DNA from: Haloferax volcanii DS2 | GTDB taxonomy: Archaea > Halobacteriota > Halobacteria > Halobacteriales > Haloferacaceae | Length of the DNA stretch: 32,000 nt | Reading direction: 5' to 3' | NCBI RefSeq assembly: GCF_000025685.1 | Contig: NC_013967.1 | Span: 1,110,001 to 1,142,000, forward strand | In this document: positions 1,716-30,471 of the stretch, piece after piece | Numbering within the stretch: the first letter of the stretch is position 1 | Layout of the letters: the number at the start of each line of letters is the position of its first letter | Position numbers and translations under genes: made by a program | Notes under the pieces: generated by a model | What the model was told of the DNA's origin: nothing | Database searches by the model: none | What the model saw: only the letters and a program-made list of their open reading frames with translations

Positions 1716-1718
1716 CGC

Positions 1719-2561: not shown

Positions 2562-4831
2562 CAGTCGGCCGCCTCCTCGGCGGTGTCGGGGAGCTGGCTC
2601 GGGTCGAACTCGCGCATCGCCTGCTCGCCGTCGGCGGGAAGTTGAAGCGTCGACACGTCGAGGATCGGGATGACGTTCCCATCGCCGATGACGGCCGTCC
2701 CCGACAGCCCGCCGACGCCCGACAGCGGCCCTTGGAGGGGCGTCACGACGACCTCCTCCTGTTTCGTCACGCCGTCGCAGTGGAGCGCGACCTGCCTGTC
2801 GTCGGGGCGGATGCGGACCACCATCCCGTCGTCGGGCTCGGGCGAGTCGATTTCCAGCGCCTCGCGGAGCCGAATCAGGGGGAAGATGGTCTCCTCGTGG
2901 ACGATGACCTCCGCGCCGTTGACCGTCTGGACGCGGTCGCGGCGGCTAATCTCGTCGATGTACTTGATGGGGACGCCGAACTCGCGGTCTTCGACCTGAA
3001 CGAAAAGCACCTTGATGATGGCGACCGACACCGGCAGCCGGATGTTGAACGTGCTCCCCTCGCCGGGGTCGCTCTCGACCGACACCGAGCCGTCGAGCGA
3101 TTCGACGGTCGTCTTCACCACGTCCATGCCGACGCCGCGGCCGGACACGTCGGTGATTTCGTCGTTGGTCGAGAAGCCGGGATGGAAGATGTAGTCGTAC
3201 ACCTCGCTGTCGGGCATCTGGTCCAGTTCCTCGCGGGTCGCAACGCCCTTGTCGATTGCCTTCTCGCGGACGGCGTCGGCGTCGATGCCGCTCCCGTCGT
3301 CCTCGACGGTCACGATGACGGTGTCGTGTTGGCGGCGCGCGGAGAGCCGGATGGTCCCCGTGCGGGACTTGCCGTTCGCCTCGCGAACGTCGGGGTCTTC
3401 GATGCCGTGGTCGACGGCGTTCCGGAGGACGTGCATCAGCGGGTCGGAAATCTCGTCGAGGATGGTTCGGTCGAGTTCGATGTCCGCGCCCTCGACTTTG
3501 AACGAGACGCGCTTGTCCTGCTCGCGGGCGAGGTCGCGCACGAGTCGGGGGAACTTGTCGAACACCTTCTTCAGCGGGATGAGCCGCATGTCCATCACGG
3601 TGTTCTGGAGGTTCGACGAGATTTTGTCCAGTTCGTCGAGCGTGTCGAGCGCCGTCGTCTGACCCACGTCGATGGCGTTTCTGAGCTTGATTCGGCTCGT
3701 GACCAACTGCTCGACGAGCTCGTGGAGTTCGTCGAGTTGGTCGACGTCCACGCGGACGGACTTGACCGCCGAGATGGAGCGTGCCTCCTTTTTCTGCTCC
3801 GCGCCGTCGCCCTCGTCCGCGTCGTCCGCGTCGTCCGCGTCGTCCGCGTCGTCCGCGTCGTCCGCGTCGTCGCCGTCGGTCGATTCGGCTCCGTCGGCGT
3901 CTCCCTCGGAGCCGTCGTCGCCCGCCTGTTCGTCGGTGGCCGCGTCCGCGCCGGTGTCGCCGGCAGTGTCAGCGTCGGCGTCGGCGCTCGACTCGGTCTC
4001 GTCCGGCGCCGAGGCGTCTCTCTCGGCGTCCGCGTCGGAGTCGGCGGCCGGCGCGTCGCTTGCAGTCGCGGTCGCGTCCCCGGCGGCGAGCGCGTCGGAC
4101 ACGTCGGTCGTCTCGACCGCGGAAACCTTCCAGAGGCCGTCGAGTTCGCTTTCGACGACGGCGGCGTCGCGCTCCGCGACGAACAGGTCGAAGCCGTCGC
4201 CGAACTCGCCGTCTTCGATGGCGTCGCGGGGCGGGTTCGCCCCGACCACGTCGAGGTCCTCGGGAATGCTGCTGAGGAAGATGCCGGCGTCGACGCCCTT
4301 CATCTGGCCGGCGTCGAGTTCGACGTGGGCGTGGGTGAGTGTGGTCGCGTCCAACGCGTCCGCGTCGACGCAGTCGGCGGCGAGAGAGCCGAGGTCAACC
4401 GACTCGCGGTCGGCCTCGTCAGACGCCGCCGGATTCGAGTTTCCCGCGTCACCGCCGTCCTCGACGGCCGCGCGAATCTCCTCGACCGTGTCGCTCGGGT
4501 CGATGGTTGACTCGCCGTTCTCCTCGATGTCGTGGAGGATGTCCACGATGAGGTCCATCCCGTCGAAGACGAGGTCCATCCGCTCGGCCGTCACGTCGAG
4601 TCGCTCGTGGCGAATCTCGTCGAGGAGGTCCTCGACGGCGTGGGCGACGGTCGCGGCGTTGTCGAAGCCCATCGCGCCGAAGTTCCCCTTCAGCGTGTGG
4701 GCCTGCCGGAAGATGTCGTCGATGGCCTCGGTGTCGTCCGGGTTCGACTCCAGCGACAGAAGCGAGTTGTTCAACTGCGTGATGCTCTCTTCGCTCTCGG
4801 TGATGAATGCTTGGTAGAGTTCTTCGTCCAT
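2561..4831 (-). CDS. cheA: Chemotaxis histidine kinase CheA with a hyper-acidic low-complexity linker
   Basis: 756 aa. Elements seen: Hpt/P1 with the phospho-His motif (FRQAHTLKGNFGAMG), a P2-like region, an acidic linker of about 100 aa, a dimerisation helix, HATPase boxes (HVLRNAVDHGIE, VEDDGSGID, GRGVGMDVV) and a C-terminal CheW-like P5 (REFGVPIKYIDEI...VVTPLQG). Confidence 0.95.
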   Translation of the reverse strand: MDEELYQAFITESEESITQLNNSLLSLESNPDDTEAIDDIFRQAHTLKGNFGAMGFDNAATVAHAVEDLLDEIRHERLDVTAERMDLVFDGMDLIVDILHDIEENGESTIDPSDTVEEIRAAVEDGGDAGNSNPAASDEADRESVDLGSLAADCVDADALDATTLTHAHVELDAGQMKGVDAGIFLSSIPEDLDVVGANPPRDAIEDGEFGDGFDLFVAERDAAVVESELDGLWKVSAVETTDVSDALAAGDATATASDAPAADSDADAERDASAPDETESSADADADTAGDTGADAATDEQAGDDGSEGDADGAESTDGDDADDADDADDADDADDADEGDGAEQKKEARSISAVKSVRVDVDQLDELHELVEQLVTSRIKLRNAIDVGQTTALDTLDELDKISSNLQNTVMDMRLIPLKKVFDKFPRLVRDLAREQDKRVSFKVEGADIELDRTILDEISDPLMHVLRNAVDHGIEDPDVREANGKSRTGTIRLSARRQHDTVIVTVEDDGSGIDADAVREKAIDKGVATREELDQMPDSEVYDYIFHPGFSTNDEITDVSGRGVGMDVVKTTVESLDGSVSVESDPGEGSTFNIRLPVSVAIIKVLFVQVEDREFGVPIKYIDEISRRDRVQTVNGAEVIVHEETIFPLIRLREALEIDSPEPDDGMVVRIRPDDRQVALHCDGVTKQEEVVVTPLQGPLSGVGGLSGTAVIGDGNVIPILDVSTLQLPADGEQAMREFDPSQLPDTAEEAAD
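3812..3874. repeat. 9-bp tandem repeat (GTCGTCCGC; 5 perfect and 2 variant units) inside cheA, encoding (DDA)n
   Basis: Perfect units at 3821-3829, 3830-3838, 3839-3847, 3848-3856 and 3857-3865. Variant units at 3812-3820 (CTCGTCCGC) and 3866-3874 (GTCGTCGCC). On the minus strand this translates as DDADDADDADDADDADDA. Confidence 0.9.
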
Positions 4832-4833
4832 GG

Positions 4834-5934
4834 TCAGGTAGTGAGCCCGCTGAGTGCTTCGTCCGCGATTCGCCCGTCGGCCGCGACGGTGTCGACACAG
4901 CCGGCCTCGATGGCCCGCTTCGGCATTCCGAAGATCGCGGAGGTCGCTTCGTCTTGTGCGACCGTGTGGCCGCCCGCCCGCTCGATTCGGGTCATCCCCT
5001 CGACGCCGTCGCGGCCCATGCCCGTGAGCAGGACGCCGGCTAGCGGCGCGTCGACCGCCTCCGCGGCCGACGCCATCGTGAGGTCGATCGCCGGTTTGAC
5101 GCCGTGCAGCGCCTCGTCGTCGGAGAGTTCGAGCCGGAGGCGTCCCGCGCGGTCGCCGGTCACGAGGAGGTGCGAGCCGCCCGGTGCGATTCGAATCTGT
5201 CCGGGGCCGATTCGCTCGCCGTCTTCGGCCTCGCGGACCTCGTAGTCACAGCGGCCGTCGAGCCGCGCCGCGAAGCGCTTCGTGAAGCCGGCCGGCATGT
5301 GCTGGACGACCAGCACGCGGAGGCCGGCCTCCGCGGGGAGCGCCGCGAGCACTCGTTCGACGACGTTCGGCCCGCCCGTGGACGCGCCGATAATCAGCGT
5401 CGAGCCCTCGGTCGGGAGCGACTCGGTCGTCTCCGACGCCGCCGATGTCGACCCTGCGGTCGCCGGCGACTTCGACTCCGCTTTCGGTGGGCGAGAGCCC
5501 CGGCGCGTCGCCGAGAGGTCGACCGCCGCGGCGGACTGAATCTTCTCGACCAGTTCCCGCTTGACGCGGGGCATCTCGGAGGTGACTTCGCCGCCCGGTT
5601 TCGTCACGAAGTCGACCGCCCCCCGGTCGAGCGCCTCGAACGTCACGTCGGCGTCCTCCTCGGCGTGCGCCGAGAGCATGAGGACGGGCGTTGGACACTC
5701 CTCCATGATGGCCTCGACCGCGTCGAGGCCGTTCATCTCGGGCATCTCGATGTCCATCGTCACCACGTCCGGTCGGTTCTCCTCGACCACCGAAATCGCC
5801 TCGCGGCCGTCGGCCGCCTCGGCGACGACCTCGACGTCTGCGTCTTCGAGGAGCGTGCGAATCAGCGTCCGCATGAACCGCGAGTCGTCGACGACGACCG
5901 CTCGCGTCGGTCCCGCGCCGGCGGTCGAACTCAT
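4834..5934 (-). CDS. cheB: Chemotaxis response regulator protein-glutamate methylesterase CheB
   Basis: Receiver domain (RAVVVDDSRFMRTLI, VVTMDIEMPEMNG) plus methylesterase domain (LIIGASTGGP, VVQHMPAGFT, LTGMGRDG). ATG at 5934 is preferred (MSSTAGAG...). The ORF track begins at an upstream GTG at 5943, which I cannot exclude. Confidence 0.93.
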   Translation of the reverse strand: MSSTAGAGPTRAVVVDDSRFMRTLIRTLLEDADVEVVAEAADGREAISVVEENRPDVVTMDIEMPEMNGLDAVEAIMEECPTPVLMLSAHAEEDADVTFEALDRGAVDFVTKPGGEVTSEMPRVKRELVEKIQSAAAVDLSATRRGSRPPKAESKSPATAGSTSAASETTESLPTEGSTLIIGASTGGPNVVERVLAALPAEAGLRVLVVQHMPAGFTKRFAARLDGRCDYEVREAEDGERIGPGQIRIAPGGSHLLVTGDRAGRLRLELSDDEALHGVKPAIDLTMASAAEAVDAPLAGVLLTGMGRDGVEGMTRIERAGGHTVAQDEATSAIFGMPKRAIEAGCVDTVAADGRIADEALSGLTT

Positions 5935-6063
5935 CGCCCCCACCCGTTGGTGCCGAGACGGCGGTCCCGCTGAGTCGTCGAGTGGGCCCCCCGTCGAGGG
6001 CTCGGTGGCTTCGTTAGTGTGCCGTTTCGTTGACCGCTCATCTACCTCCGTGGTTCGGAAATC

Positions 6064-6123
6064 GGGTATATAAACACTCGGCGGGGATAATCACGGCTGA
6101 TAATCGAGTACGTATCTTTATAG
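6064..6123. promoter_or_regulatory. Divergent cheB / cheW control region with two TATA-like boxes and a GATAATC direct repeat
   Basis: An AT island sits in an otherwise GC-rich spacer. TATATAAA at 6067-6074 reads TTTATATA on the minus strand. CTTTATAG lies at 6116-6123, about 40 nt upstream of the cheW ATG. GATAATC occurs twice (6086-6092 and 6099-6105), 6 bp apart. Confidence 0.4.
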
Positions 6124-6162
6124 GCTGAATCTCACCACTCTGAAGCAGACAGGTGGCGGCGG

Positions 6163-6657
6163 ATGTCGCCGCCGGGGTTGACCATGCGACAAGATGCAAT
6201 CACGACCGAGATGAGCGCGGACGAGACCGACGCGGAGGACTCCGCCGAAGAAGTACAGGTGCTGGAATTCCAACTCGGACCGGAGACGTACTGCGTCGAC
6301 ATCGAGTACGTGAGCGAAATCGTCGACAAGGGCCAGCTCACGGCGGTGCCGAACGCGCCGGACTACGTCGAGGGCGTGATGGACCTCCGCGGGCGGACCA
6401 CGTCCATCATCAATCCGAAGTCGCTTCTCAGCATCGACGCCGGGGGCGAGTCGAAGCGCATCGTCATCTTCGACCCGAACAAGTTCGAAGACGAGGCGGC
6501 GACCGGCTGGCTCGTCGACGAGGTGTACCAGGTCGTGCGCGTCTCGATGGACGACGTGGAGGACCCGCCGCTGGAAAAAGACGACTCCATCGAGGGCGTC
6601 ATCAAGCGCGACGGCGACCTCGTCGTCTGGATTTCGCCGGTGCACGCCATCGAGTAA
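6163..6657 (+). CDS. cheW: Chemotaxis coupling protein CheW
   Basis: 164 aa with a single CheW-like domain (VLEFQLGPETYCVDIEYVSEIV, VPNAPDYVEGVMDLRGRTTSIINPKSLL) after an acidic N-terminal tail. It is divergent from the cheB operon. Internal in-frame ATG codons shortly downstream of 6163 are possible alternative starts. Confidence 0.9.
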   Translation: MSPPGLTMRQDAITTEMSADETDAEDSAEEVQVLEFQLGPETYCVDIEYVSEIVDKGQLTAVPNAPDYVEGVMDLRGRTTSIINPKSLLSIDAGGESKRIVIFDPNKFEDEAATGWLVDEVYQVVRVSMDDVEDPPLEKDDSIEGVIKRDGDLVVWISPVHAIE

Positions 6658-8977: not shown

Positions 8978-11443
8978 ATGGAATACAGCAGACGACGTCT
9001 CTTGCAGACGACGGGGCTCGCAGTCGCGGCCGCGGGGCTCGCGGGCTGCAACGGCCGATCGAGCGATGAGACGACCACCGCCGCCGAGACCGATTCGGAG
9101 ACGGAGACCGCGGCCGAAACGACCACCGAGGACGCCGAGTCGTCGGTGAGCGTCGACGCCGCCGTCGCCGTCGCGGCCGAGTGGAACGCGATGCGCGCCC
9201 GCCTCTACGACACCGTCGCGCTGGCCGCCGCGGGGCGACTGGGTACCGCCGCCCGCGTCACCGGCGACGTGTTCGCCCGCTTCGAGCAGTCTTCGGGCGA
9301 GTGGGGCGCACACGAGCAGTTGGAGGCGACGAACGAACAGAACTACGAGACGTTCGAATCGCACCTCGGCGGCGCGAGAGAGGCGTACGCCGCCGGCGAC
9401 GCCGAGCGCGGGTCGGACCTCGCCGTGCAGGCGGCCGACAACCTGCTTGCGGCCCAGCGCGGCCGCGTCGACGCCGCCGTGGTCGACGCGCTGGAGGTCC
9501 TGCTGTTCGGCGCTCGCGCCCGCGACGCCGGCCTGCTCGCCGCGGCCGGCGAGGTCGACGCCGCGGCCGAACTGGCGAACGCGGTGTACGAGGACTTCGA
9601 GGACGCGCCCGCCCACTCGTCGCTGGAGTCCGCCTCGGGCGAACTGTACGAGACGTTCGAGGCGGCCGTCGAGGGCGCGGCCGACGCTGGCGACGCCGAG
9701 ACCATCGCCGCCTCGGCCCGGACCGCCGCCGACGCGACGGTCGACGCGAGCTACGAACTCGCTCCCGAGGCGGTCGCGGGCGCGAGTCACCTCGCGCTCA
9801 TGCAGGCGGTCGGCTTCGACGCCGAGGTGCTCGCCGGGCTCGGCGGTCCCGGCGACGAGTTCGCCCACGCGGCCGCGCTGTCGCTCTACCGCGCCCGCGC
9901 CGCCGACGTGCCACGGCTGGTCGCCGCGGGCGAGGCCGACTTCGCCGCGACGGTCGCGAGCGACGTGTTCGCCCACTTCGAAGGCGCGCGAGCGCACGAG
10001 GCGTTAGAGGAGGCCGACCACGACGCCTACGAGGGCTTCGAGGGCGGGCTGGAATCGCTGACCGAGGCCGCCGAATCGGGCGACGGTGCGGCGGCCGAGG
10101 AGGCGGTGGCGACGGTGGACGAGAACCTGCTCGCGGGAATCTCGGCGCTCGTCGGCGGCGAGGCCGCGACGGTGCTCGAAGCGGCGTTCTTCCGCGCCCG
10201 CCTCGGCGACGCCCGCGAGCTGGTCGCCGTCGGCGAGACGGACCGCGCCGCCGCCGTCGGTGAATCCCTCTTCGCCCGGTTCGAAGAGAACGAGGCGAAC
10301 CTCCACGAGTCCGTCGAAGAGGAGTCCGAAGAGCTCTATCACCGCTTCGAAGAGGAGCATCTCGCCGGCCTCGTCGAGGACGCGGCCGCCGGCAACGCCG
10401 ACGCCGCCGCGGCCCACGCCGAGGGCGCGATGGACGCGCTGTTCGAGTTCGAGGCGGCCGTCGGCGCGACCGCCGAAGTGTCGGCCGCGGAGGCCGCGTT
10501 CTTCGGTGCCCGCGGATTCGACGCCGCCGCGCTCGCGCAGGTCGGCGCGTCGGCCCGCGCCGGCTCGGTCGTCCAGTCCACCTTCGCCTTCTTCGAGAGC
10601 GGCGCGGGCGGCTATCACGAGACCTTGGAAGAGGCCGACCACGACCTCTACGAGTCGTTCGAGGGCGCGCTCGGCTCAGTCCGAACCGCGGCCGAGGAGG
10701 GCGGCGACGCCTACGGCGCGGCCAAGACCTACGGTCAGAAGGCGGTCGATTCGATGTACGCCGTCGTCGCCACCGCGGCCGCGGACGCCGGCCTCGGAGC
10801 CGCCGCCTCGGAGCGCATGACCGGCGTCTTCCAGACGTTCGAGGAGGCCCGCGTCCACGAGGCCTTAGAGGGGGCCGACCGCGACGCCTACGAGAGCTTC
10901 GAGGCGGCGCTGTCCGACTACGTCGACGCGTTAGCGGACGGAAGCGAAGTCGACGCCGCCGCAGAAGCGTACGCGACGGCGACCGCCCGCGCCCAGTTCG
11001 CCGTCGTCGGTGAAGTCGGCAAGGCCCCCGAGGCGGGCAGCTCCGAAGACGGCGGCTCCGCCGACGCGGCGCTGTCCGGCGGGCCGAACGTCGTCGAGGG
11101 CGTCCCCGAGGACGCCGACCACGTCGTAGAGATGTCCGCCGTCGCGTTCGAGCCGGCGGAACTGACGGTATCGGCCGGTGACACCGTCGCGTTCGAGCAC
11201 GTCGGCGGCGAGGCCCACTCGGTCACGGCCTACGGCGACGAACTCCCCGAGGGAGCGGCGTACTGGGCCTCAGGCGGCTTCGAGTCCCGAGAAGCGGCCG
11301 AGACCGGCTGGAGCGAAGGGAAGGGCGCGGTCCAGTCTGGCCAGTCCTACGTCCACACCTTCGAGACGGCCGGCGAGCACGCGTACTACTGCGTGCCTCA
11401 CGAGGCCGCGGGCATGACGGGTACTATCGTCGTCGAGGAGTAG
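8978..11443 (+). CDS. Tat-exported lipoprotein: six ~100-aa acidic helical repeats plus a C-terminal type-1 copper (halocyanin/plastocyanin-like) domain
   Basis: Twin-arginine plus lipobox signal (MEYSRRRLLQTTGLAVAAAGLAGC), then a Thr/Glu-rich linker. Six repeats each carry F-x-x-F-E...H-E-x-L-E...Y-E-x-F-E, with the conserved His at aa 112, 213, 340, 443, 547 and 627. The C-terminal cupredoxin has the ligand pattern H747...C805-x2-H808-x4-M813 (EAHSVTAY...YYCVPHEAAGMTG). Confidence 0.85.
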   Translation: MEYSRRRLLQTTGLAVAAAGLAGCNGRSSDETTTAAETDSETETAAETTTEDAESSVSVDAAVAVAAEWNAMRARLYDTVALAAAGRLGTAARVTGDVFARFEQSSGEWGAHEQLEATNEQNYETFESHLGGAREAYAAGDAERGSDLAVQAADNLLAAQRGRVDAAVVDALEVLLFGARARDAGLLAAAGEVDAAAELANAVYEDFEDAPAHSSLESASGELYETFEAAVEGAADAGDAETIAASARTAADATVDASYELAPEAVAGASHLALMQAVGFDAEVLAGLGGPGDEFAHAAALSLYRARAADVPRLVAAGEADFAATVASDVFAHFEGARAHEALEEADHDAYEGFEGGLESLTEAAESGDGAAAEEAVATVDENLLAGISALVGGEAATVLEAAFFRARLGDARELVAVGETDRAAAVGESLFARFEENEANLHESVEEESEELYHRFEEEHLAGLVEDAAAGNADAAAAHAEGAMDALFEFEAAVGATAEVSAAEAAFFGARGFDAAALAQVGASARAGSVVQSTFAFFESGAGGYHETLEEADHDLYESFEGALGSVRTAAEEGGDAYGAAKTYGQKAVDSMYAVVATAAADAGLGAAASERMTGVFQTFEEARVHEALEGADRDAYESFEAALSDYVDALADGSEVDAAAEAYATATARAQFAVVGEVGKAPEAGSSEDGGSADAALSGGPNVVEGVPEDADHVVEMSAVAFEPAELTVSAGDTVAFEHVGGEAHSVTAYGDELPEGAAYWASGGFESREAAETGWSEGKGAVQSGQSYVHTFETAGEHAYYCVPHEAAGMTGTIVVEE

Positions 11444-20791: not shown

Positions 20792-21286
20792 GTGTCCGGG
20801 ACCCTCGCACGACTCGCCCGCGACGAGCCGGAGACGGCGATTCTCGGCGTCGAGTCGCTGCTCGCGGCCGGCGTCCTCCTCGGCGTCGCGCTGACGCTCG
20901 TCTCGTCGCTCGCGCCGACGCTCCCGCTTGCCGACGTCGGCTTCGCGCTCGCGGCCGCCGCGACGCTCCTGCTGACGGCCGTCTCGCTTCTGGCCGCGTC
21001 GCGGCGAATCGCCCTCCTTCTCACCGGCCGCGGCGGCCTGCGAATCGAGACGTTCTGGCGGCTCCTCGAACTGCTGCTCGCGTTTCTCGTCGCCGGCATC
21101 GTCGCGTTCGCCGTCCAACTCGGCGAGTTCGCGGCGACCGTCCCCGACCCGCGGGGCGGCGGCGTCTTCGTCGGCCTGTTCTTGGCGTTCGTCCTCGCGG
21201 GCGTCGGCCTCGCCGTCGTCGTCTGCCTCCGCGGGATGTGGCTCGTCGTGAACGCAGAACTTCAGTCGGCGCTCGACGGGGTCTGA
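20792..21286 (+). CDS. Integral membrane protein (about 4 TM), unknown function
   Basis: 164-aa ORF with a GTG start, four long hydrophobic segments and GC-rich third positions. Its 3' end overlaps the convergent MFS gene by 25 nt. I recognise no family. Confidence 0.45.
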   Translation: MSGTLARLARDEPETAILGVESLLAAGVLLGVALTLVSSLAPTLPLADVGFALAAAATLLLTAVSLLAASRRIALLLTGRGGLRIETFWRLLELLLAFLVAGIVAFAVQLGEFAATVPDPRGGGVFVGLFLAFVLAGVGLAVVVCLRGMWLVVNAELQSALDGV

Positions 21287-22479
21287 GTCGCGTCGATGCC
21301 GTCGAGCCGCTTCACCGCCCGGAGCGCGACGAGCGCGATGGCAACCTCGGCGAAGCCGACGACGAGGAACGACGGGAGGTAGCCGACCACGTCGGCGACG
21401 ACGCCCCCGACGAGGAAGCCGGCGAGGAAGCCGAGGCTCCCGAAGACGTTGAACCCGCCGAGGGCCGCCCCGCGCTCGCCCGACTCGGCGAGGTCGGTCA
21501 CGAGCGCCATCGTCGCGGGCGCGACGAGCGCGCCGAAGACGCCGACGACGACCATGAGAGCGGCCGCGAGTTCGAAGACCGGGGCGACGCCGACGGCGAC
21601 GATTGACACGCCGTAGAGCATCGACCCCGCGACGACGGGGACGAACCGGCCGACGCGGTCGGACAGCGAGCCGAGAGGGTACTGCAAGAGCGCGAAGGGG
21701 ACGAAAAAGAGCGCGAGCACCCCGCCGGCGACGGCGGCGTTCACGCCGAACGCCTCGCGGAAGTAGTACACCCCGACGAGGGCGAAGAAGCCGGCGGTCA
21801 TGCGGTCGATGAAGCCGAAGGCGTACGGGACCGCGAACGCCGGGCGCGCGGCCAGTTTCTTGAGGACGACGCCGACGCCGACGCGGGTCGAATCGGGCGT
21901 CCTGTCGGTGACGGTCGTGACGAGCAGCGCGACGGCGGTGAGCGACGCGGCCGACGCGTACAGCGGCGCGAGGGGGTCGATGGTCGTGAGTTGGCCGCCG
22001 ACGACCGAGCCGAGCGCCGCGCCGAGGCCGATGGCGATGCCCGCCGCGCCCATGTTCCGGCCGTTGCCCCCCGAGAGGTCCGCGAGCATCGTAATCGACA
22101 GCGAGAACGCGCCGATGGTCATCGCGCCGCCGAGGAGGCGGACGATGAGGACCGCGCCGAACGTGGCGTCGAGCCACGGGAGCGTGGCGAGCGCGAGGAG
22201 CGCGACGTAGCTGGCCGCGCCGCCGAGCGCGCCCGCGACGATGAGCCACGTCCGCCGGCCGAGCGCGTCCGAGAGCGCGCCCCAGACGCTCGAAAAGGCG
22301 ACGAACGAGGCGAACTCGGCGACGAGAAACAGCATCCCGGCCGAGAGGTCGTACTCCCCTTGCCCGCCGCCGAGGGCGGTCACGAGGTCTGAGACGCCGG
22401 GATAGAGGAGCACCTGCGAGACGAGGACGCCCCAGACGGCGAGCGCGAGTGTCGCGCGTTCGCGGCGCGTCGAGTCCAT
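21262..22479 (-). CDS. MFS transporter
   Basis: 405 aa with 12 predicted TM segments. The MFS loop motif GALSDALGRRTWLI lies between TM2 and TM3. The two six-helix halves are repeated. Confidence 0.85.
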   Translation of the reverse strand: MDSTRRERATLALAVWGVLVSQVLLYPGVSDLVTALGGGQGEYDLSAGMLFLVAEFASFVAFSSVWGALSDALGRRTWLIVAGALGGAASYVALLALATLPWLDATFGAVLIVRLLGGAMTIGAFSLSITMLADLSGGNGRNMGAAGIAIGLGAALGSVVGGQLTTIDPLAPLYASAASLTAVALLVTTVTDRTPDSTRVGVGVVLKKLAARPAFAVPYAFGFIDRMTAGFFALVGVYYFREAFGVNAAVAGGVLALFFVPFALLQYPLGSLSDRVGRFVPVVAGSMLYGVSIVAVGVAPVFELAAALMVVVGVFGALVAPATMALVTDLAESGERGAALGGFNVFGSLGFLAGFLVGGVVADVVGYLPSFLVVGFAEVAIALVALRAVKRLDGIDATQTPSSAD

Positions 22480-22535: not shown

Positions 22536-23597
22536 TTACCCGAGGCGGACGGGGTCGAATTCGAGGAAGGCCGTCTCGTACCCCTCGTGGCGGGCGACCT
22601 GCGGCGGCACGTCCACCGCGAGGTCCGCGGTCGCGTCGTCGCCGGCGAGCCCCGGAACCGACGCGCCGTAGTGGAACCCGAGGTCGGCGTCGAGGCCGGG
22701 TTCGAGGCGGCCGTCGAAGCGGGTCGACCCGCCGGATTCGACGGTCGCGGTGAGTCCCAGCCGCGGGACGAGAAGGCGGTTGTAGGGCGTCAGCGGGAAG
22801 ACGGCGAGGTACGGGTCGTCGCCGAAGCGGTCGGCGTCGAGGGCGGTACCGACGAGTCGGAGGCTCCCAGTCGTCGCGCCCCCTAGCGCCGTCCCCGGAA
22901 GCGTCTCGGGGCCGCGGCCGAGCGGAAGCCCGTCCATCTCCATCGGCCTGACCGCGCCGGGGTCGCCCTGCTGGTCGTCGAGCATCGTGTACGGGATGTC
23001 GTCGCGGTCGCCGGCGCTGTACTCGAAGTCGAGCGTCGCGCTCGCGGGGGAGTCGAACCGGCCGACGAGGTCACCGAAGAGGCGCAGCGAGGGCGCGCCC
23101 ACGTCCACCGTCACCTCGTAGGTGCCGTCGCCGTCGAGACCGAAGTTCGAGCCGTAGTGAAAGCCCATCCGCTGGGAGAGCATCGCGTAGACGACCTCCT
23201 CGATCACGAGGTCGCCGTCGCGGGCGATTTCGAGAGAGAGGCCCGTGTCGGGGACGACGACGCCCGTCTCGGGGTCCCAGACGGTCGCCATGAGATGCAC
23301 GTCGTCGCCGGGCTCGACCGACATCTTCGACGTGCCGAAGCCGTCGCCCTCGTCGGCCATCACCCAAAAGCGGTGGGGGTAGCTGTAAAAGACGCCCACG
23401 CGGAGGTCGCCGGCGTCCGCGCTCCCGACCATGCGCATCCCCTCGGTGTGGGTCGGGACGTACACCTCGTCCGGGCGGTTCGAGACGACCGGCGGCTCGT
23501 TCGACGTGTAGAGCCGACCGAGTTCGGCGAGACAGCCGGAGAGACCTGCGGCCGCGACGGCTCCGCTCGCCGCGAGGAACCGACGCCGACTCGTCAT
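22536..23597 (-). CDS. Tat lipoprotein with two tandem P19/FetP/Tp34-like (Fe2+ transport protein family) domains
   Basis: Signal MTSRRRFLAASGAVAAAGLSGC. Domain 1 contains HLMATVWDPE...AMLSQRMGFHYGSNFGL, which resembles the H-x-E ... M-x(n)-G-x-H-Y-G-x-N metal-site signature of P19-type periplasmic proteins as I recall it. Domain 2 repeats only LGFHYGASV. The start overlaps the SCO1 stop (ATGA at 23594-23597). Confidence 0.55.
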   Translation of the reverse strand: MTSRRRFLAASGAVAAAGLSGCLAELGRLYTSNEPPVVSNRPDEVYVPTHTEGMRMVGSADAGDLRVGVFYSYPHRFWVMADEGDGFGTSKMSVEPGDDVHLMATVWDPETGVVVPDTGLSLEIARDGDLVIEEVVYAMLSQRMGFHYGSNFGLDGDGTYEVTVDVGAPSLRLFGDLVGRFDSPASATLDFEYSAGDRDDIPYTMLDDQQGDPGAVRPMEMDGLPLGRGPETLPGTALGGATTGSLRLVGTALDADRFGDDPYLAVFPLTPYNRLLVPRLGLTATVESGGSTRFDGRLEPGLDADLGFHYGASVPGLAGDDATADLAVDVPPQVARHEGYETAFLEFDPVRLG

Positions 23598-24265
23598 GCC
23601 TCCCGGAGCGCGGTGAGGTCGTCGATGAGCGACTGTTCGTCCGGCTGGTTACCGCGGTAGGTCCGCTCGACGTAGCCGTCGCCGTTGACCAGCGAGATGA
23701 GGCCGAGGTGGGTGAACATGTAGTTGCCCTCGTCGTCCGGCTCGTTCTTCTCGAAGAAGACGCCGAACTGGTCTTCGACGACCGACTTCGCCTCGGACTC
23801 GTCGGCGGGCCGGAGGAAGTGCCAGTTGCCCGCGTCCATGTCCACGTTCATCTGGTCGGCCTCCGCGCGGAACGCGTCGGCGTCGTCGCGGGCGGGGTCG
23901 AACGTGATGGGGTAGAACGACACCTCGTCGGCGTAGCCCTCGCTGACCGAGTGAATCTGGACCTCGCGGAGCGCGCTGATGAGCACCGGACAGACGGTCA
24001 TGCAGTTGGTGAAAAAGTACGTGTGGAAGTGTGGCACGTCGATGTCGCGCACCGACACCTCGATCCCCGCGATGGGGTCAGAAAGCGTCACGTCGGGGAC
24101 CTGCTGGCCCCACGCCGGATACGGGAGGTCCTCGCTGGACACGTCGTTCTCGCGGTCGGGCCGCGACAGCGACACGTTCGGGTTGGCGTCGCCCCCACCG
24201 AGACAGCCCGCGAGGCCGACGGCCGCGCCCGCCCCGGCGGCGCGGAGATACGTTCGTCGTTTCAT
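23594..24265 (-). CDS. SCO1/SenC-family copper chaperone (thioredoxin fold), Tat lipoprotein
   Basis: 223 aa from ATG 24265. Signal MKRRTYLRAAGAGAAVGLAGC. The SCO CxxxC motif (FFTNCMTVCPVL) and the distal His (YMFTHLGLISLV) are present. The longer track ORF (to 24601) has an Arg/Ser/Ala-rich, non-coding-looking N-terminus. Confidence 0.85.
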   Translation of the reverse strand: MKRRTYLRAAGAGAAVGLAGCLGGGDANPNVSLSRPDRENDVSSEDLPYPAWGQQVPDVTLSDPIAGIEVSVRDIDVPHFHTYFFTNCMTVCPVLISALREVQIHSVSEGYADEVSFYPITFDPARDDADAFRAEADQMNVDMDAGNWHFLRPADESEAKSVVEDQFGVFFEKNEPDDEGNYMFTHLGLISLVNGDGYVERTYRGNQPDEQSLIDDLTALREA

Positions 24266-24410
24266 TACCCTCGCTAGCGCCCCGGCACTCAAATGCCGTT
24301 TGGTGTGCGTTTCGAACGGTAGCGCGCGTGTTCTCGTCCCGCACGCCGGAGGCGAAATCTTCGACGCACACACCAGAACGGACTTCCCCGCGAGGTCCCT
24401 AGCCGGGCGT

Positions 24411-25709
24411 ATGTTCGACGGGTCTCCGTCCCGCCGGGAGTTCCTGAAGGCCGCGGTCGCCGCCGGCGGCGCGGCGGCGCTCTCCGCCTGCCTCGACAGG
24501 GCACCGGACGACCCCGTTCCGGCGGGGACCGGCGCGTTCGAGGCGCTCCCGAGCCGGCAGCACGCGTGGAACGAGTTCTGTCGGGAAGACGACCACGGCA
24601 ACGTCGAGGTGCCCCGCCATCAGGTGCTCCTCTATCTCGACCTCGACGGCGAGGGACCGCCCGACGAGGCCGCCCGCGCGACCGTCGAGGGCGCCTTCCG
24701 CGCCCTCGACCGCGCCTACGAGCGGAGCCACGAGGGCGTCATCTGGTCGGTCGCCTACTCGCCGCGGTACTTCGACCGCTTCGACGACCCGCTTCCCGAC
24801 AGCGTGGACCTGCCCGAACCGCGGGCGCTGTCGCCGTTCGAGACGCCCGACTTCGACCGGCAGGACGCGCTCGTCCACCTCGCGTCCGACCGCGCCGACG
24901 CGGTTCTCGAAGCCGAACAAGCCCTCCTCGGCGAGGCGGACGAGGCCAACGGCGTCGCCGTCGACGCCGACCTCTCGGGCGTCTTTTCGGTTGCGTCCCG
25001 GCGGACGGGCTTCGTCGGGGCCGGACTCCCCGCCGAGCACCAGTCCGACCTGAACGGCATCCCCGACGGGAACCCCGTCCCCGAGGCGTCGCCGCTGTTC
25101 ATGGGGTTCAAAGCCGGCTTCGCCAAGAATCAGGCCACCGAGGAGTACGTCACCATCGACGACGGGCCGTTCGCGGGCGCGACCACGAAGCACGTGGCGA
25201 ACGTCCGCCAGCGCCTCTCGGACTGGTACGACGAGGAAGACCGCTACCACCGGGTCATGAAGCTATTTTCGCCGGAACACGCCGAACAGGGACTCGTCGA
25301 GGGCGTCGGCGACAACCTCGGCGACGACAGCGGCATCGACGCGATGCTCGACAGCCTCCGCGACGACGCCTTCGAATTCGGCCACGTCGGCCACGCCCAG
25401 AAGGCCGCCCGCGCCAACCGCGACGACGAGGGCAACGTCAGACTCCTCCGCAGACACTTCGAGTCGGACGACGACGGCGTGGCGAGCCTGCACTTCCCGT
25501 CGCTCCAGCGCGGTATCTCGGCGTTCGAGGAGGTCCGCGAGGCGATGAACGGCACCGACCTGACCGACGTGCCGACCGTCCGCCAGCGCGTCAACAACGG
25601 GATTTTAGAGTACATCTTCGTCAAGCGCCGCGGCAACTTCCTCGTGCCGCCGCGGGAGATTCGCGCGTTGCCGACGCCGACCGGCGAAGTTCCGGGGCTG
25701 GACGGCTGA
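24411..25709 (+). CDS. Tat lipoprotein with a DyP-type peroxidase (EfeB-like) C-terminal signature; function unverified
   Basis: 432 aa from ATG 24411. Signal MFDGSPSRREFLKAAVAAGGAAALSAC. The C-terminal order resembles DyP/EfeB: PLFMGFKAGF, then GHVGHAQKAARAN (candidate proximal His), RLLRRHF, SLHFPSLQR..AFEEV, ILEYIFVKRRGNFLVPP. The track ORF starting at 23979 is an antisense-overlap artefact. Confidence 0.5.
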   Translation: MFDGSPSRREFLKAAVAAGGAAALSACLDRAPDDPVPAGTGAFEALPSRQHAWNEFCREDDHGNVEVPRHQVLLYLDLDGEGPPDEAARATVEGAFRALDRAYERSHEGVIWSVAYSPRYFDRFDDPLPDSVDLPEPRALSPFETPDFDRQDALVHLASDRADAVLEAEQALLGEADEANGVAVDADLSGVFSVASRRTGFVGAGLPAEHQSDLNGIPDGNPVPEASPLFMGFKAGFAKNQATEEYVTIDDGPFAGATTKHVANVRQRLSDWYDEEDRYHRVMKLFSPEHAEQGLVEGVGDNLGDDSGIDAMLDSLRDDAFEFGHVGHAQKAARANRDDEGNVRLLRRHFESDDDGVASLHFPSLQRGISAFEEVREAMNGTDLTDVPTVRQRVNNGILEYIFVKRRGNFLVPPREIRALPTPTGEVPGLDG

Positions 25710-25739
25710 GCCGGCCGCTGCTCGCGCTTTCCTGCACCC

Positions 25740-26432
25740 TCAGACGTGTCCCAAGAACGACAGCGCCAGCCAAATCTGCCAGAGGCCGGCGAGCACCATC
25801 ACGACCGCGGCGGCTTTCTGGACCGAGCCAACGTAGCCCGACAGCGACCGGATTCGGTCGCCGCCGAGCGCGGCCGCGACGGTGACGACCGAAAGCGGGA
25901 GCGCCGCGGCGGCGGCGTAGGCTCCGAGCGAGACGACCGCCTGCGGGGTCGGGAGCGCGAGCGATTGCGTGACGACGCCGAGGAAAATCGGGACGACGCA
26001 GCCGGCCGCCGCGAGGCCGTACACCCCGCCGAAGACGGCGAATCCGGTCACGGACGACCGGTACTCCGGGAGGACGACGTGGAGGCTCGGCGCGCGCCCG
26101 GTGAACATGAGGACGCCGAAGCCGACGAGCGCCGCGCCGACGAGCGGTTCGAGGAGCGCGAGGTGCGAGGCGATGCGGCCGCCGACGACCGCGAGCGCGC
26201 TCCCGATAGCGCCGAGGACGACCAGCGCGGCGAGCGATGCGACCGCCCCGCGGACGACCGCGCCGCCGAGGTCGGCCTCCTCGCTGGAGAGGTAGTAGCC
26301 GACGTAGCCCGGGAGAAGCGGGTAGGCGCAGGGCGCGAAGAAGGTGGCGACGCCGGCGCTGACGGCGAACGCGAGCGTGCCGGCGAAGGCGGAATCGAAC
26401 CCCAGCGCGGGGCCGAGACCGAACCCGGGCAT
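25740..26432 (-). CDS. ccdA: CcdA/DsbD-family transmembrane thiol-disulfide electron transporter
   Basis: 230 aa from ATG 26432 (MPGFGLGPALGF...) with 6 TM segments. The two family cysteines sit in TM helices (FFAPCAYPLLPGYVGYY and AAAGCVVPIFLGV). The start overlaps the stop of the upstream thioredoxin gene (TGATG at 26430-26434). Confidence 0.85.
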   Translation of the reverse strand: MPGFGLGPALGFDSAFAGTLAFAVSAGVATFFAPCAYPLLPGYVGYYLSSEEADLGGAVVRGAVASLAALVVLGAIGSALAVVGGRIASHLALLEPLVGAALVGFGVLMFTGRAPSLHVVLPEYRSSVTGFAVFGGVYGLAAAGCVVPIFLGVVTQSLALPTPQAVVSLGAYAAAAALPLSVVTVAAALGGDRIRSLSGYVGSVQKAAAVVMVLAGLWQIWLALSFLGHV

Positions 26433-27022
26433 CAGGCGACGTCCTCGACGGCCGCGCGGAGATTCTCCTCGCTGGCGAGTCCGCGGTGGGTCCACGTCGC
26501 CTCGCCGTCGGCGTCGAAGACGACGAGATACGGGAGGCCGTTCGCGCGGACCGCGCGCATCAGGCTACTGTCGGGGTCGTGGCCGACCGTCCAGTTCCCG
26601 TCGTGTTCGGCCCACCAGTCGCGGATGTCGTCCATCGTGAGGCCGCCGCCGAGGCGCTCGTTCGTCACCGAGACGAACGCCACGTCGTCACCGAACTCCT
26701 CGTGGAGCGTCCGCAGCGACTCCATCTGGGCGACGCAGGGCGCACACCACGTCGCGAAGAGGTCGAGGACGGTCGGCGCGCCCTCGGCGGGGATTCGAAC
26801 CTCGCCGGCCGACGACCCCTGCGCGTCGACGGTGTCGACGACGAGCGGGAGGTCGCCGGAACCGGACCCCGACGACGCGGTGGCGGAGGCGGGGTCGGCG
26901 GCGTCGCTCGTCGTCTCGGCCGCGTCGCCCGCTTCGGCGGGTGCGGACCCGTCGCCGAGACAGCCCGCGACGCCGGCGACGCCCGCGCCCGCGAGCAGCG
27001 AGAGGAGGGCGCGTCGTCTCAC
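26432..27022 (-). CDS. TlpA/ResA-like extracytoplasmic thioredoxin, lipoprotein
   Basis: 196 aa with a GTG start. Signal MRRRALLSLLAGAGVAGVAGC, then a low-complexity linker and a thioredoxin fold with the WCAPC active site (VLDLFATWCAPCVAQM). Confidence 0.85.
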   Translation of the reverse strand: MRRRALLSLLAGAGVAGVAGCLGDGSAPAEAGDAAETTSDAADPASATASSGSGSGDLPLVVDTVDAQGSSAGEVRIPAEGAPTVLDLFATWCAPCVAQMESLRTLHEEFGDDVAFVSVTNERLGGGLTMDDIRDWWAEHDGNWTVGHDPDSSLMRAVRANGLPYLVVFDADGEATWTHRGLASEENLRAAVEDVA

Positions 27023-27169
27023 CGGGCGTCACCTCGTCGGGGTCGGGAGCGCGGTCGCGTCGTGTGCATACTCGTGGCTAGTGAATCCCGTCGTAAAGCG
27101 TCGCTGGTGTCGTGCGCGAATCCCGCGCGAGAGGTGGTGTGGGCGTCGAACCACGCGACTCGCGTCCGA

Positions 27170-27853
27170 TTACCGGGCGTTCTCGACGGCGCGCTGGAGG
27201 TCGGACCATCGCGGCGCGACCTGCTCGCCGTCGATGAGAACCGTCGGCGTCCCCTGGAAGCCGCGCTCGTCGACGGCCTCGGTCCGCTCGGCTTCGACGA
27301 GCGGGCGGTAGCGTTCGCGCGAAGCCGCCGCGGCGACCGAACAGCCGTCGAGGTCGGCGTCGGCGGCGAGCGACTGGAGCGTCGACAGCGACCCCTCGGC
27401 GTCGCCGCCGCCGAACTCCGATTGGTTCTCGTAGAGCGTGTGGGCGAAGTCGAAGAAGGTCTCGTCGTCGGCCTCGTCCTGGACGGCGCGGGCCGCCGAG
27501 GCCCCCTTCCACGACCACCATTCGTCCACCGGAATCGGGAAGTCGTGGTGGCGGTAGCGGACGATTCCCTCCGAGACGTACTCGGACCGGAGCTGCGGGG
27601 CGACGTCGACCGCGAACGTCGCGCAGTGAGGGCAGGCGAAGTCCTCCCAGACGTCGACGACGACGCTCGCGTCCTCGGACCCGATGACGGGCGTGGGGAG
27701 CGAACTGACCGTGTCGCGTTCGGGGACCTCACAACCGATGGCGGCGACGGCGTCGTTTCCGGACCCGCCGCTTCCGCCGCCGAGGCACCCGGCGGTGCCC
27801 AGCGTCAACGCACCCGCCGTGGCGGCGAGGTACGCGCGTCGTGTGTTGCGCAT
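27170..27853 (-). CDS. DsbA-family thiol:disulfide oxidoreductase, Tat lipoprotein
   Basis: 227 aa. Signal MRNTRRAYLAATAGALTLGTAGC. CPHC active site (VWEDFACPHCATF). The C-terminal GTPTVLIDG motif (cis-Pro loop region) is typical of the DsbA family. Confidence 0.8.
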   Translation of the reverse strand: MRNTRRAYLAATAGALTLGTAGCLGGGSGGSGNDAVAAIGCEVPERDTVSSLPTPVIGSEDASVVVDVWEDFACPHCATFAVDVAPQLRSEYVSEGIVRYRHHDFPIPVDEWWSWKGASAARAVQDEADDETFFDFAHTLYENQSEFGGGDAEGSLSTLQSLAADADLDGCSVAAAASRERYRPLVEAERTEAVDERGFQGTPTVLIDGEQVAPRWSDLQRAVENAR

Positions 27854-28036
27854 GGTCGGGGTCGGGGACGGACGAACTTAGATTCTCCGAGGCGAATCGC
27901 GGGGTTTCGGAGGGCGTTGCCGCTTTCCGTGGTTCGATTCGGGAACGCGGAACTCCGGCGACTCACGGCCGACGACCGCGATTTCAGCCGTCTCACAAAC
28001 GACACTGATTAAGCCTCCTGTGGCGTCACCTAACAC

Positions 28037-28414
28037 GTGCCAACCGTCCACTTCCGCGGCCGGGAAATCGAGTGCGACCGCGGGGACGTCCTCCGCGACG
28101 TGCTCCGCGCGGCCGGCGAATCGCCGCACAACGGTCACTCGTCGTGGTTCAACTGCCGCGGCGGCGGCTCCTGCGGCACCTGCGCCGTCCGGGTTCGCGG
28201 TCCCGCGACCTACCGGACGAAAAAGGAGCGCCGCCGGCTCCGATTCCCCCCGCACGACCCCGACTCGGGGCTCCGACTCGCGTGCCAGACGGTCGTCCTC
28301 GGCGACCTCCGGGTGGAGAAGTACCCCGGATTCTGGGGCCAACGCGTCGAAGCCGATGAGAGCGAAACAGGAGCTGTGCAGGACGCGGAAGACGCGCAGG
28401 AACCGACCGACTGA
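28037..28414 (+). CDS. Plant-type [2Fe-2S] ferredoxin-domain protein
   Basis: 125 aa with a GTG start. The Cys pattern C-x6-C-x2-C...C (FNCRGGGSCGTCAV ... LRLACQTVV) fits a 2Fe-2S ferredoxin-like fold. It has an acidic C-terminal tail. It is divergent from the DsbA gene. Confidence 0.65.
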   Translation: MPTVHFRGREIECDRGDVLRDVLRAAGESPHNGHSSWFNCRGGGSCGTCAVRVRGPATYRTKKERRRLRFPPHDPDSGLRLACQTVVLGDLRVEKYPGFWGQRVEADESETGAVQDAEDAQEPTD

Positions 28415-29883: not shown

Positions 29884-30471
29884 TTACTCGTCTTTCCACT
29901 TGATGGAACAGCCCTGCGAGGGGTACTCCTCGACGGGGATGTCGTCGCCGGCGAGCAGCGCCTCGACGGCCGTCCGCATCTCGTAGTCGGAGACCTCGTC
30001 GTCGGGGCTCATCGCGTCGTCGATGCGGGAGTGGAACGCGAGTTCGAAGCCATCGCCGGTGTTCTCGAGGAGGAACGGGTCGGGCGTGCAGACCGCGCCG
30101 TAGTCGGCGGCGACCGCCTGGGACTCGTCGCGGAGGTAGGCGGTGTACCCAATCGTGCCGTCCGCGACGAGTTCCTGCATTCGTTCGAAGGAGTCCTCGG
30201 GGCGGTCCTCGGCGTCGTTGGGGTTGATGCCGACGACCGCGAGGTCGTCGTAGGCGCTGGCGAGGTGGTTCAGCTCCTCGAACTTCGCCTTCGCGTACGG
30301 ACAGTGGTTGCAGGTGAAGACGACGAGGACCGCATCGTAGTCAGCGAACGACGAGAGGGAGTACGTCTCGCCGTCGGTGCCGGGGAGTTCGAAGTCGGGG
30401 GCGGCGTCGCCGCGTTCGAGTTCGGAGTCGGATTCGAGCAGTACCATGTCGCCACGTTGGCCCGCGGACAT
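29884..30471 (-). CDS. Thioredoxin-fold (redoxin / AhpC-TSA-like) protein with a CNHCP active site
   Basis: 195 aa: APDFELPGTDGETYSLSSF..AVLVVFTCNHCPYAKA. There is no signal peptide, so it is cytoplasmic. An alternative start is ATG 30447. Confidence 0.8.
   Translation of the reverse strand: MSAGQRGDMVLLESDSELERGDAAPDFELPGTDGETYSLSSFADYDAVLVVFTCNHCPYAKAKFEELNHLASAYDDLAVVGINPNDAEDRPEDSFERMQELVADGTIGYTAYLRDESQAVAADYGAVCTPDPFLLENTGDGFELAFHSRIDDAMSPDDEVSDYEMRTAVEALLAGDDIPVEEYPSQGCSIKWKDE

Follow-up and report, generated by a model that had tools for sequence, protein, structure and literature searches.

A Tat-lipoprotein island of Haloferax volcanii that encodes a tandem P19-type protein, a divergent DyP-type protein and Sco1, and its possible role in copper trafficking

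Genes and signals of the island

We analysed a stretch of 32,000 nt from Haloferax volcanii DS2 (NC_013967.1, positions 1,110,001-1,142,000), referred to here as the window, to which all coordinates are relative. It contains an island of six genes, encoding a P19-like lipoprotein, a SCO1/SenC protein, a DyP-like protein of family DUF7405, and CcdA-, TlpA- and DsbA-like thiol-redox proteins (Table 1). The GC content of the window is high, and the best matches of its proteins are Haloferax proteins with 92-99% identity. Direct reading of the sequence confirmed the genes, signal peptides, overlaps and spacer that a first-pass annotation of this DNA had listed. The stop codon of SCO1 overlaps the start codon of the P19-like gene (ATGA, 23594-23597), the TlpA-like stop overlaps the CcdA-like start (TGATG, 26430-26434), and SCO1 and DUF7405 diverge from a spacer of 145 bp (24266-24410).

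Five of the six island genes begin with a signal for export by the twin-arginine (Tat) route, carrying the RR motif, and a lipobox (LSGC, LAGC, LSAC, VAGC and TAGC). Outside the island this combination was found in one of 23 called genes, that of the DUF5059-cupredoxin, and since this is the single further carrier among the 29 genes called in the window, the clustering is not due to chance. Tat-lipoprotein signals are common in haloarchaeal secreted proteins (PMC2945643), and in the island proteins they indicate surface anchoring and nothing more. The DsbA of H. volcanii (Hvo_1245) was shown experimentally to be a Tat lipoprotein (PMC2945643). Another verified Tat lipoprotein, Hvo_1242 (lipobox LSGC, Cys26; PMC2945643), has no certain match in the island: LSGC occurs solely in the P19-like protein, where the Cys is at position 22, and locus-tag arithmetic better fits DUF7405.

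The island had been described as lacking a metal permease. This holds for FTR1/EfeU, which searches of the window proteins did not find in the 32 kb, but a transporter of the MFS family had been overlooked, whose gene has the same orientation as the P19-like gene and begins 56 nt past its stop codon. In 34 of the 80 haloarchaeal loci compared below, an MFS gene lies 34-139 nt downstream of the P19-like gene or, if the latter is missing, 47-120 nt after SCO1. In the window, the SCO1/P19-like operon probably ends with this gene. The MFS protein has a weak full-length match to MamH.

Table 1. Positions of the features discussed (aa, amino acids)
Feature	Position	Strand	Remarks
MFS transporter	21262-22479	-	PF07690, 114 bits
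P19-like lipoprotein	22536-23597	-	353 aa; PF10634 and DUF7350 (PF24041)
SCO1/SenC	23594-24265	-	223 aa; PF02630, 50.5 bits
Inverted repeat, left arm	24296-24309	-	in SCO1/DUF7405 spacer; direct reading
Inverted repeat, right arm	24366-24381	+	in SCO1/DUF7405 spacer; reading and alignment
DUF7405 (DyP-like)	24411-25709	+	432 aa; PF24152, 576 bits
CcdA-like	25740-26432	-	230 aa; profile match to 5vkv
TlpA-like	26432-27022	-	196 aa; Redoxin, AhpC-TSA and Thioredoxin_8 matches
DsbA-like	27170-27853	-	227 aa; Thioredoxin_4 (PF13462, 135 bits)/DSBA
2Fe-2S ferredoxin (Fer2)	28037-28414	+	125 aa; PF00111
AhpC/TSA-Redoxin protein	29884-30471	-	without signal peptide; 2 kb past the island
DUF5059-cupredoxin	8978-11443	+	821 aa; Tat lipoprotein
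Archaeal chemotaxis cluster	849-6657		cheF, cheR, cheA, cheB, cheW
Orphan membrane protein, L092	8001-9410		outside the window
Orphan membrane protein, L093	10001-11512		outside the window
Orphan membrane protein, L091	9693-11018		outside the window
Orphan membrane protein, L094-L097			outside the window

Predicted folds and active sites

The P19 fold, a beta-sandwich, that had been proposed for the P19-like protein was borne out by both profile and structure comparisons. Residues 106-175 match PF10634 (Iron_transport) with 35.0 bits, against a gathering cut-off of 21, and when the AlphaFold2 model (predicted local distance difference test, pLDDT, 84.7; predicted TM-score 0.83) was compared with the PDB by Foldseek, the best 29 matches were all proteins of the P19 family (Tp34, HftA, FetP, FtrA and P19), with E-values of 4e-6 to 1.6e-4 and target-normalised TM-scores of 0.58-0.68. 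A P19-type domain (residues ~40-205) is followed by DUF7350 (~225-353), and because hhalign aligned residues 40-205 with residues 225-353 at a probability of 96.6% (E 5.7e-10), we regard DUF7350 as a degenerate second P19 domain. The predicted architecture is that of a tandem P19-P19' pseudo-dimer, a single-chain counterpart of the P19 homodimer.

Ligand residues were mapped by profile alignment to the full-length FetP from an Escherichia coli plasmid. The segment DVH44LE46AD48 of FetP is aligned with DDVH101LM103AT105 of the P19-like protein, M90, D94 and H97 are aligned with M139, M144 and H147, and PPSKAGMHRH127TDSE is aligned with PPQVARH337EGYE in the second domain, so that the copper ligands of FetP (H44, M90, H97 and H127') all have equivalents (H101, M139, H147 and H337). 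In P19/FetP dimers the fourth copper ligand, H127 of FetP, is donated by the partner subunit; H337 of the second domain can, according to the alignment, provide this ligand in cis. The predicted copper site of the P19-like protein is thus composed of H101, M139 and H147 together with H337, and a second, Met-rich site is predicted at M54, M103 and M144. An earlier candidate for the H-x-E motif of P19, H50/E52, was ruled out by the full-length FetP profile alignment, which gives DVH101LM103 instead; residues 50-95 form an insertion relative to FetP, and H50 varies among the paralogues.

The iron/manganese site of P19 is acidic, formed by E3, E44, D46 and D92 (PMC9174327). This patch is not kept in the P19-like protein, where E46, D48 and D94 of FetP are replaced by M103, T/S/V105 and M144. 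M103 and M144 are invariant, as are M54, H75, H101, M139, H147 and H337, over P19-like paralogues of 37-58% identity. As judged from the sequence, these ligands would suit a soft site of the Cu(I) type better than a ferric site, and the NCBI name of the protein, 'iron transporter', is probably wrong.

The sole Pfam match of the DUF7405 protein is to its own family, and its membership in the DyP superfamily, proposed in the first-pass annotation, was supported by three comparisons. Although the structure model is good in its N-terminal half only, the best 50 PDB matches listed by Foldseek were all of the DyP family, whose fold has two ferredoxin-like domains, including DtpA and the EfeB of Bacillus subtilis, with E-values of about 1e-5. 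The link by sequence required a deeper alignment, built from an exhaustive profile search of representatives that returned 466 DUF7405 relatives; all of those whose source name was checked are from Halobacteria. Of 60 divergent relatives, 11 match Dyp_perox_C of Pfam (best E 2e-6), and hhalign of the deep alignment with E. coli EfeB gave an E-value of 6.5e-5 over 345 columns, end to end. Shallower comparisons did not reveal the relation: 35 close relatives matched no DyP family in a Pfam scan at E <=10, a profile of close relatives gave E ~1 against the PDB, and shallow hhalign against EfeB gave P 0.044.

In the alignment with EfeB, H328 falls on the His of the segment DSHIRLANPR, which we take to be the proximal haem ligand, and R347/R348 on the distal Arg (LMLRRG). 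These residues are invariant in close DUF7405 relatives, and 90% or more of the divergent relatives have them as well. Where EfeB has the catalytic Asp of the GXXDG motif (GFKDG), the DUF7405 protein has A235 (GFKAG); A235 is invariant among close relatives, and the wider family has Ala or Ser at this position. In the published classification, DyP subclass I1 is found only in Halobacteria, carries a Tat signal, has the distal Asp replaced by Ala or Ser while the distal Arg and the proximal His are kept, and gives only borderline Pfam DyP matches (PMC9719856). The replacement of Asp by Ala or Ser is the defining trait of that subclass, and DUF7405 fits a divergent DyP-type haem peroxidase of subclass I1, with haem binding and activity being predicted. 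Experiments have been done on a single member of the subclass, VNG0798H of Halobacterium salinarum, which is reported to be induced by H2O2 and paraquat, and whose deletion reduced survival by 99.9% at 25 mM H2O2 (PMC2925529). Some DUF7405 proteins are much longer (600-830 aa; P0274 and P0399 of Halomicrobium zhouii and about 25 other representatives) and carry large insertions and C-terminal extensions. An apparent P19/DUF7405 fusion (P0341) was not used: its start falls inside a domain, and the gene was probably truncated or merged in gene calling.

Some database entries name the DyP-like family 'deferrochelatase/peroxidase EfeB', and haem-iron extraction, in which such a deferrochelatase (once proposed for EfeB and YfeX) would feed iron to the P19-like protein, was among the functions suggested earlier. 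Apart from this name only the family resemblance to EfeB speaks for it, the deferrochelatase activity of EfeB and YfeX is itself disputed, no haem transporter or haem-binding partner was found in the window, and the P19-like protein has not kept the iron site. We consider this explanation highly improbable.

The identities given before to SCO1, TlpA, CcdA and DsbA are consistent with the active-site residues, which are kept in all four. SCO1, of thioredoxin-like fold, carries C88xxxC92 and H186, aligned with the copper ligands of B. subtilis Sco1 (1on4/1xzo, E 3e-7). The CcdA-like protein has no Pfam match; its profile aligned with Thermus CcdA (5vkv, E 6.1e-6, residues 12-210 with 5-197), including the two motifs, one for each pseudo-repeat, that contain Cys35 (FAPCAYP) and Cys145 (AGCVVP). 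The TlpA-like protein is an extracytoplasmic thioredoxin of the TlpA/ResA type with the motif WCAPC and weak NCBIfam matches to StoA, ResA and TlpA, and the DsbA-like protein has the motif CPHC; both, like SCO1, are Tat lipoproteins.

The conserved pair, its promoter motif and its paralogues

Conservation was examined in 80 loci from about 20 genera, covering 10 kb on either side of the DUF7405 gene. A P19-like gene is present in 46 of them: directly upstream of DUF7405 on the same strand in 12 loci, directly downstream on the same strand in seven, convergent in two, divergent through SCO1 in 17, and at a distance of 2-7 kb in eight. SCO1 was found in 24 loci and CcdA and TlpA in 23 each; the three occur together, almost exclusively in Haloferacaceae, and TlpA abuts or overlaps CcdA in 22 of the 22 loci measured. 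As the P19-like/DUF7405 pairing recurs across loci while SCO1, TlpA and CcdA stay lineage-bound, we conclude that the P19-like protein and the DyP form a robust conserved unit. The Sco1/TlpA/CcdA set is a lineage-specific addition to this core pair. Outside Haloferacaceae, 14 loci (L026, L031, L063, L069, L075, L081 and others) have three further genes beside the pair, absent from the window, which encode a secreted DUF7282 protein with a PGF-CTERM-like anchor and a His-rich mature N-terminus, a small DUF7471 membrane protein, and an HVO_0163-type winged-helix regulator.

Conservation of the gene order, a point raised in the first-pass annotation, thus applies widely to the pair; the full six-gene order occurs only in Haloferax, Halogeometricum and Salinigranum and in a few metagenome-assembled genomes (MAGs), all Haloferacaceae, where it resembles ordinary synteny. 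Unrelated genes are co-conserved there, namely an aldo-keto reductase (40 loci), a PF01877 RNA-binding protein (33), an AhpC-like protein (31) and an EamA protein (25). Such a distribution would be expected if the island were no single system, with Sco1, TlpA and CcdA serving as a CuA relay, the DyP in peroxide defence, DsbA in general thiol oxidation and the P19-like protein as an unrelated binder, all brought together by chance in Haloferacaceae. Halobellus loci, which keep MFS, DUF7405 and DsbA without a local SCO1, P19-like, TlpA or CcdA gene, agree with this explanation, as do the peroxide sensitivity described for the VNG0798H knockout (PMC2925529) and the plain annotation of two SCO paralogues of Haloferax mediterranei as oxidase chaperones. 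The recurrence of the P19-like/DUF7405 pair in various arrangements across families argues in the other direction, and so does an unrelated MAG (L072) in which TlpA-SCO1 stands beside DUF7405-P19-like in a different order. The ATGA overlap of SCO1 and the P19-like gene is also conserved, being kept in 13 Haloferax loci.

The upstream regions provide a further argument against a chance assembly. The spacer between SCO1 and DUF7405 holds an inverted repeat with one arm 29-30 nt from either start codon. The left arm, read toward SCO1, is CGCACACCAAACGG, ends 30 nt before the SCO1 start codon, and recurs in L023 and in every Haloferax locus; the right arm, CGCACACACCAGAACG, precedes the start codon of DUF7405 by 29 nt. 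The SCO1-side arm mirrors a motif to which the DUF7405-side arm belongs, [CT]A[CT]CA[ACG]AA[CT] (consensus about GyACCAGAAC, also written CACACCAGAAC), which precedes DUF7405 by 30-41 nt in 30 of 84 cases and P19-like genes by 24-37 nt in 11 of 58, in many genera (L019-L076), where ~0.003 hits per upstream region are expected. Among the nine other families tested, eight (SCO1, MFS, TlpA, DsbA, Fer2 and three others) gave no upstream match, and CcdA gave two. The motif probably represents an operator or promoter element common to the pair, and its fixed distance argues for co-regulation of DUF7405 and the P19-like gene even where the two are apart. A sequence upstream of the TlpA-like gene, ACACCAGCGAC / CGACACCAGCGACGCTTTAC (27098-27113, minus strand, ~75 nt from the start), was rejected as too distant and too divergent and is possibly there by chance. 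Weighing the two sides, we hold the chance-neighbour explanation to be rather unlikely.

Clues to the metal came from paralogues of the P19-like protein. In H. volcanii and H. mediterranei one paralogue stands in a row with an 85-aa open reading frame (ORF), an orphan membrane protein, an HMA P-type ATPase and a HiPIP. An island on a Salinigranum rubrum plasmid (L091) and in a Haloferax sp. (L093) combines genes for a CDF transporter, an HMA ATPase, the orphan membrane protein, DUF7405 and two P19-like proteins with those for a DtxR-type regulator, a multicopper oxidase, a cupredoxin and a ZIP-like transporter. The membrane protein of this metal island shows 93-99% identity between Salinigranum, Haloarcula, Halomicroarcula and Haloferax, a sign of probable recent horizontal transfer. 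Halogeometricum pallidum has a P19-like gene beside those for a multicopper oxidase and a cupredoxin, together with a ZIP gene, and in Halobacterium hubeiense a paralogue occurs with NosL/NosD, a multicopper oxidase, CtaA and a DsbA-DsbB pair.

The orphan membrane proteins (440-503 aa, polytopic) form a haloarchaeal family of about 1000 relatives with the invariant His motifs AGYHLAHY and GHLLAxWxAH, for which no Pfam or PDB relative was found. Their gene adjoined a P19-like (DUF7350) gene in all six contexts looked up and is often beside that of an HMA P-type ATPase, usually after an ORF of 85-88 aa. It is not in this window, and its product is the best candidate for a missing membrane partner of the P19-like protein.

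These contexts bear on iron uptake of the EfeUOB or Ftr1-P19 type, in which the DyP would oxidise Fe(II) with H2O2, the P19-like protein would capture Fe(III) beside its copper site, a non-FTR1 carrier (the MFS protein, or the orphan membrane protein elsewhere) would import it, and the thioredoxins would act in reduction, as proposed for Campylobacter. The P19 fold with its PF10634 match, an EfeB-like, Tat-exported DyP and the NCBI name are what one would expect of such a system; periplasmic thioredoxins are encoded in the P19 operons of Campylobacter (PMC6083913), some paralogues have DtxR-type regulators and ZIP transporters nearby, VNG0798H is co-regulated with iron-management genes (PMC2925529), and even the MamH match of the MFS protein, weak as it is, points the same way. 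However, the protein has lost the acidic residue at three positions of the iron site and has invariant Met at two of these, the neighbours of the paralogues are mostly copper genes (HMA ATPase, multicopper oxidase, cupredoxin, NosL), and the P19-like gene is translationally coupled to that of a copper chaperone. An FTR1/EfeU gene next to the orthologues, which would have made the island an ordinary iron system, was found in none of the 80 loci: within 10 kb of DUF7405 there was no protein with two REXLE motifs and none with similarity to EfeU. The Fe(II) and haem-iron readings of the first-pass annotation are weakened by the Met substitutions and the copper ATPases, multicopper oxidases and cupredoxins beside the paralogues, and iron uptake of this type appears unlikely to us.

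DsbA-like genes were found in 35 of the 80 loci and adjoin DUF7405 in Halobellus; membership of DsbA in the module is uncertain. The ferredoxin, a plant-type 2Fe-2S protein without a signal peptide, was rejected as a member, as it is cytoplasmic and its 18 loci all belong to Haloferacaceae synteny; it is probably outside the system. A partnership with the DUF5059-cupredoxin as an analogue of EfeO had also been suggested. That protein consists of a DUF5059 domain of 620 residues and a C-terminal plastocyanin-like domain, the only part with matches (plastocyanins), its gene is 13 kb away, and, as for the ferredoxin, we found no evidence linking it to the island. The AhpC/TSA-Redoxin protein past the island is conserved in 31 of the 80 loci, within Haloferacaceae synteny. 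The other genes of the window comprise the complete chemotaxis cluster, which is unrelated to the metal/redox island, a xanthine/uracil permease gene and housekeeping genes.

A possible copper module and its relatives

Taking together the folds, the ligand residues, the gene linkage, the promoter motif and the copper genes around the paralogues, we see about an even chance that the island is an extracytoplasmic, membrane-tethered module for copper trafficking and redox chemistry and not one for iron uptake. We infer copper as the metal, as well as the direction of its transfer, the substrate of the peroxidase and the client enzymes. The core would be a co-regulated, Halobacteria-wide pair of a tandem P19-type lipoprotein and a haem peroxidase of DyP subclass I1 that leaves the cell by the Tat route. 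Copper would be held in a composite His3Met site formed by H101, M139 and H147 of the first domain and H337 of the second, H337 taking the role of the partner-subunit His in P19/FetP dimers, with the Met-rich site beside it in place of the acidic iron site of P19. Sco1, as its translational coupling suggests, may give copper to the P19-like protein or take copper from it; CcdA would move reducing equivalents across the membrane to TlpA, which would keep the CxxxC of Sco1 reduced. The DyP may use H2O2 to set the Cu(I) to Cu(II) state, to clear peroxide near redox-active copper, or both, a role that was also proposed for DtpA of Streptomyces (PMC4736821). Candidate clients are CuA oxidase, halocyanins, NirK/NosZ and multicopper oxidases, and the MFS transporter would follow in the same operon. 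A more specific version, which we offer tentatively as a possibility on the doubtful side, is a copper system that does without an FTR1-type permease, in which a P19 pseudo-dimer with a Met-rich Cu(I) site is metallated by Sco1 and poised by an H2O2-driven DyP that lacks the catalytic Asp, while its paralogues work with the His-rich orphan membrane protein and a CopA-type ATPase on mobile islands.

Several points weigh against the copper reading. The assignment of copper rests on ligand mapping by alignment and on gene context, and the closeness of H337 to H101, M139 and H147 is predicted from the alignment and not from model coordinates. The DyP model is of low quality in its C-terminal half (pLDDT 30-40), the protein lacks the catalytic Asp, and haem binding is a prediction only. 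No more than 23-24 of the 80 loci, nearly all from Haloferacaceae, have SCO1, TlpA and CcdA beside the core pair, and with unrelated neighbours co-conserved there (the aldo-keto reductase, the RNA-binding protein and the AhpC-like protein) simple synteny may account for part of the island. DtxR/Fe_dep_repress-type regulators lie beside some paralogous islands, and VNG0798H shares predicted regulators with iron-management genes (PMC2925529), which leaves room for iron; its membership in DUF7405 is inferred from matching properties, and it was not among the DUF7405 relatives listed by the searches.

The first-pass annotation knew this combination of genes from no described system, but a described analogue exists. 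The sco operon of Streptomyces lividans encodes Sco (SLI_4214), ECuC (SLI_4213), a putative Cu transporter (SLI_4212) and DtpA (SLI_4211), a Tat-exported DyP that is needed for cuproenzyme maturation and was proposed to use H2O2 on or beside bound metal (PMC4736821). As in that operon, a Sco1 lipoprotein, a second extracytoplasmic copper lipoprotein (with copper binding predicted here), a transporter and a Tat-exported class-I/A DyP are encoded together. The island differs in having a tandem P19-type protein instead of the PCuAC-like ECuC (no PCuAC/ECuC-type chaperone was found in it), an MFS protein instead of the CopC/CopD-like transporter, and a DyP without the catalytic Asp that is transcribed divergently, whereas dtpA is in the same operon; TlpA-CcdA and DsbA are encoded alongside, and the host is an archaeon. 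The island is therefore an analogue, not a member, of S. lividans-type sco/ecuc/transporter/dtpA operons.

The relation to other known systems is likewise partial. The island shares with EfeUOB, FetMP, P19-cFtr1 and FtrABCD the association of a P19-fold or cupredoxin-type binder with a DyP (EfeB) or a redox partner. Unlike these, including EfeUOB of both E. coli and B. subtilis, it has no FTR1/EfeU/FetM permease in the window or the 80 loci; it has no EfeO (M75) protein, in contrast to EfeUOB, and, in contrast to P19/FetP iron systems, Met replaces the acidic iron site and the P19 unit is a single-chain pseudo-dimer. The DUF7405 proteins resemble DyP subclass I1 in the traits listed above (PMC9719856), and the searched text on the subclass (PMC9719856, PMC2925529) mentions no P19-like protein, SCO1 or copper neighbours; a full-text literature search for the DUF names found nothing.

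A thiol-reduction relay from CcdA through TlpA to ScoI is established for CuA assembly in Bradyrhizobium and other bacteria. The same three protein types, with active-site Cys motifs, shared loci and coupled TlpA and CcdA genes, are present here; unlike in that relay, no cytochrome oxidase genes are in the window, and Sco1 is coupled to the P19-like protein and not to cox.

Every component family, DyP subclass I1 and the link between Sco and DyP are thus already known (PMC9719856, PMC4736821). New are the tandem, Met-substituted P19 architecture with DUF7350 as a degenerate P19 domain, the pairing of the P19-like protein with DyP subclass I1 and the promoter motif they share, the translational coupling to Sco1, and the orphan membrane partner.

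How copper is delivered to archaeal surface cuproenzymes (halocyanins, CuA oxidases, NirK, NosZ and multicopper oxidases) is largely unexplained, and a P19-like/DyP pair linked to Sco1 in the genetically tractable Haloferax offers a concrete candidate pathway that is testable in H. volcanii. An uncharacterised family of membrane proteins is indicated as its likely membrane partner. If the copper reading is true, DyP subclass I1, so far known from a peroxide-sensitivity phenotype alone, would gain a physiological role, and the label 'iron transporter' on more than 1000 haloarchaeal proteins is probably wrong. The version without an FTR1-type permease, if true, would amount to a new archaeal surface route for copper delivery or detoxification and would mean that the P19 and DyP scaffolds have been put to a new use.

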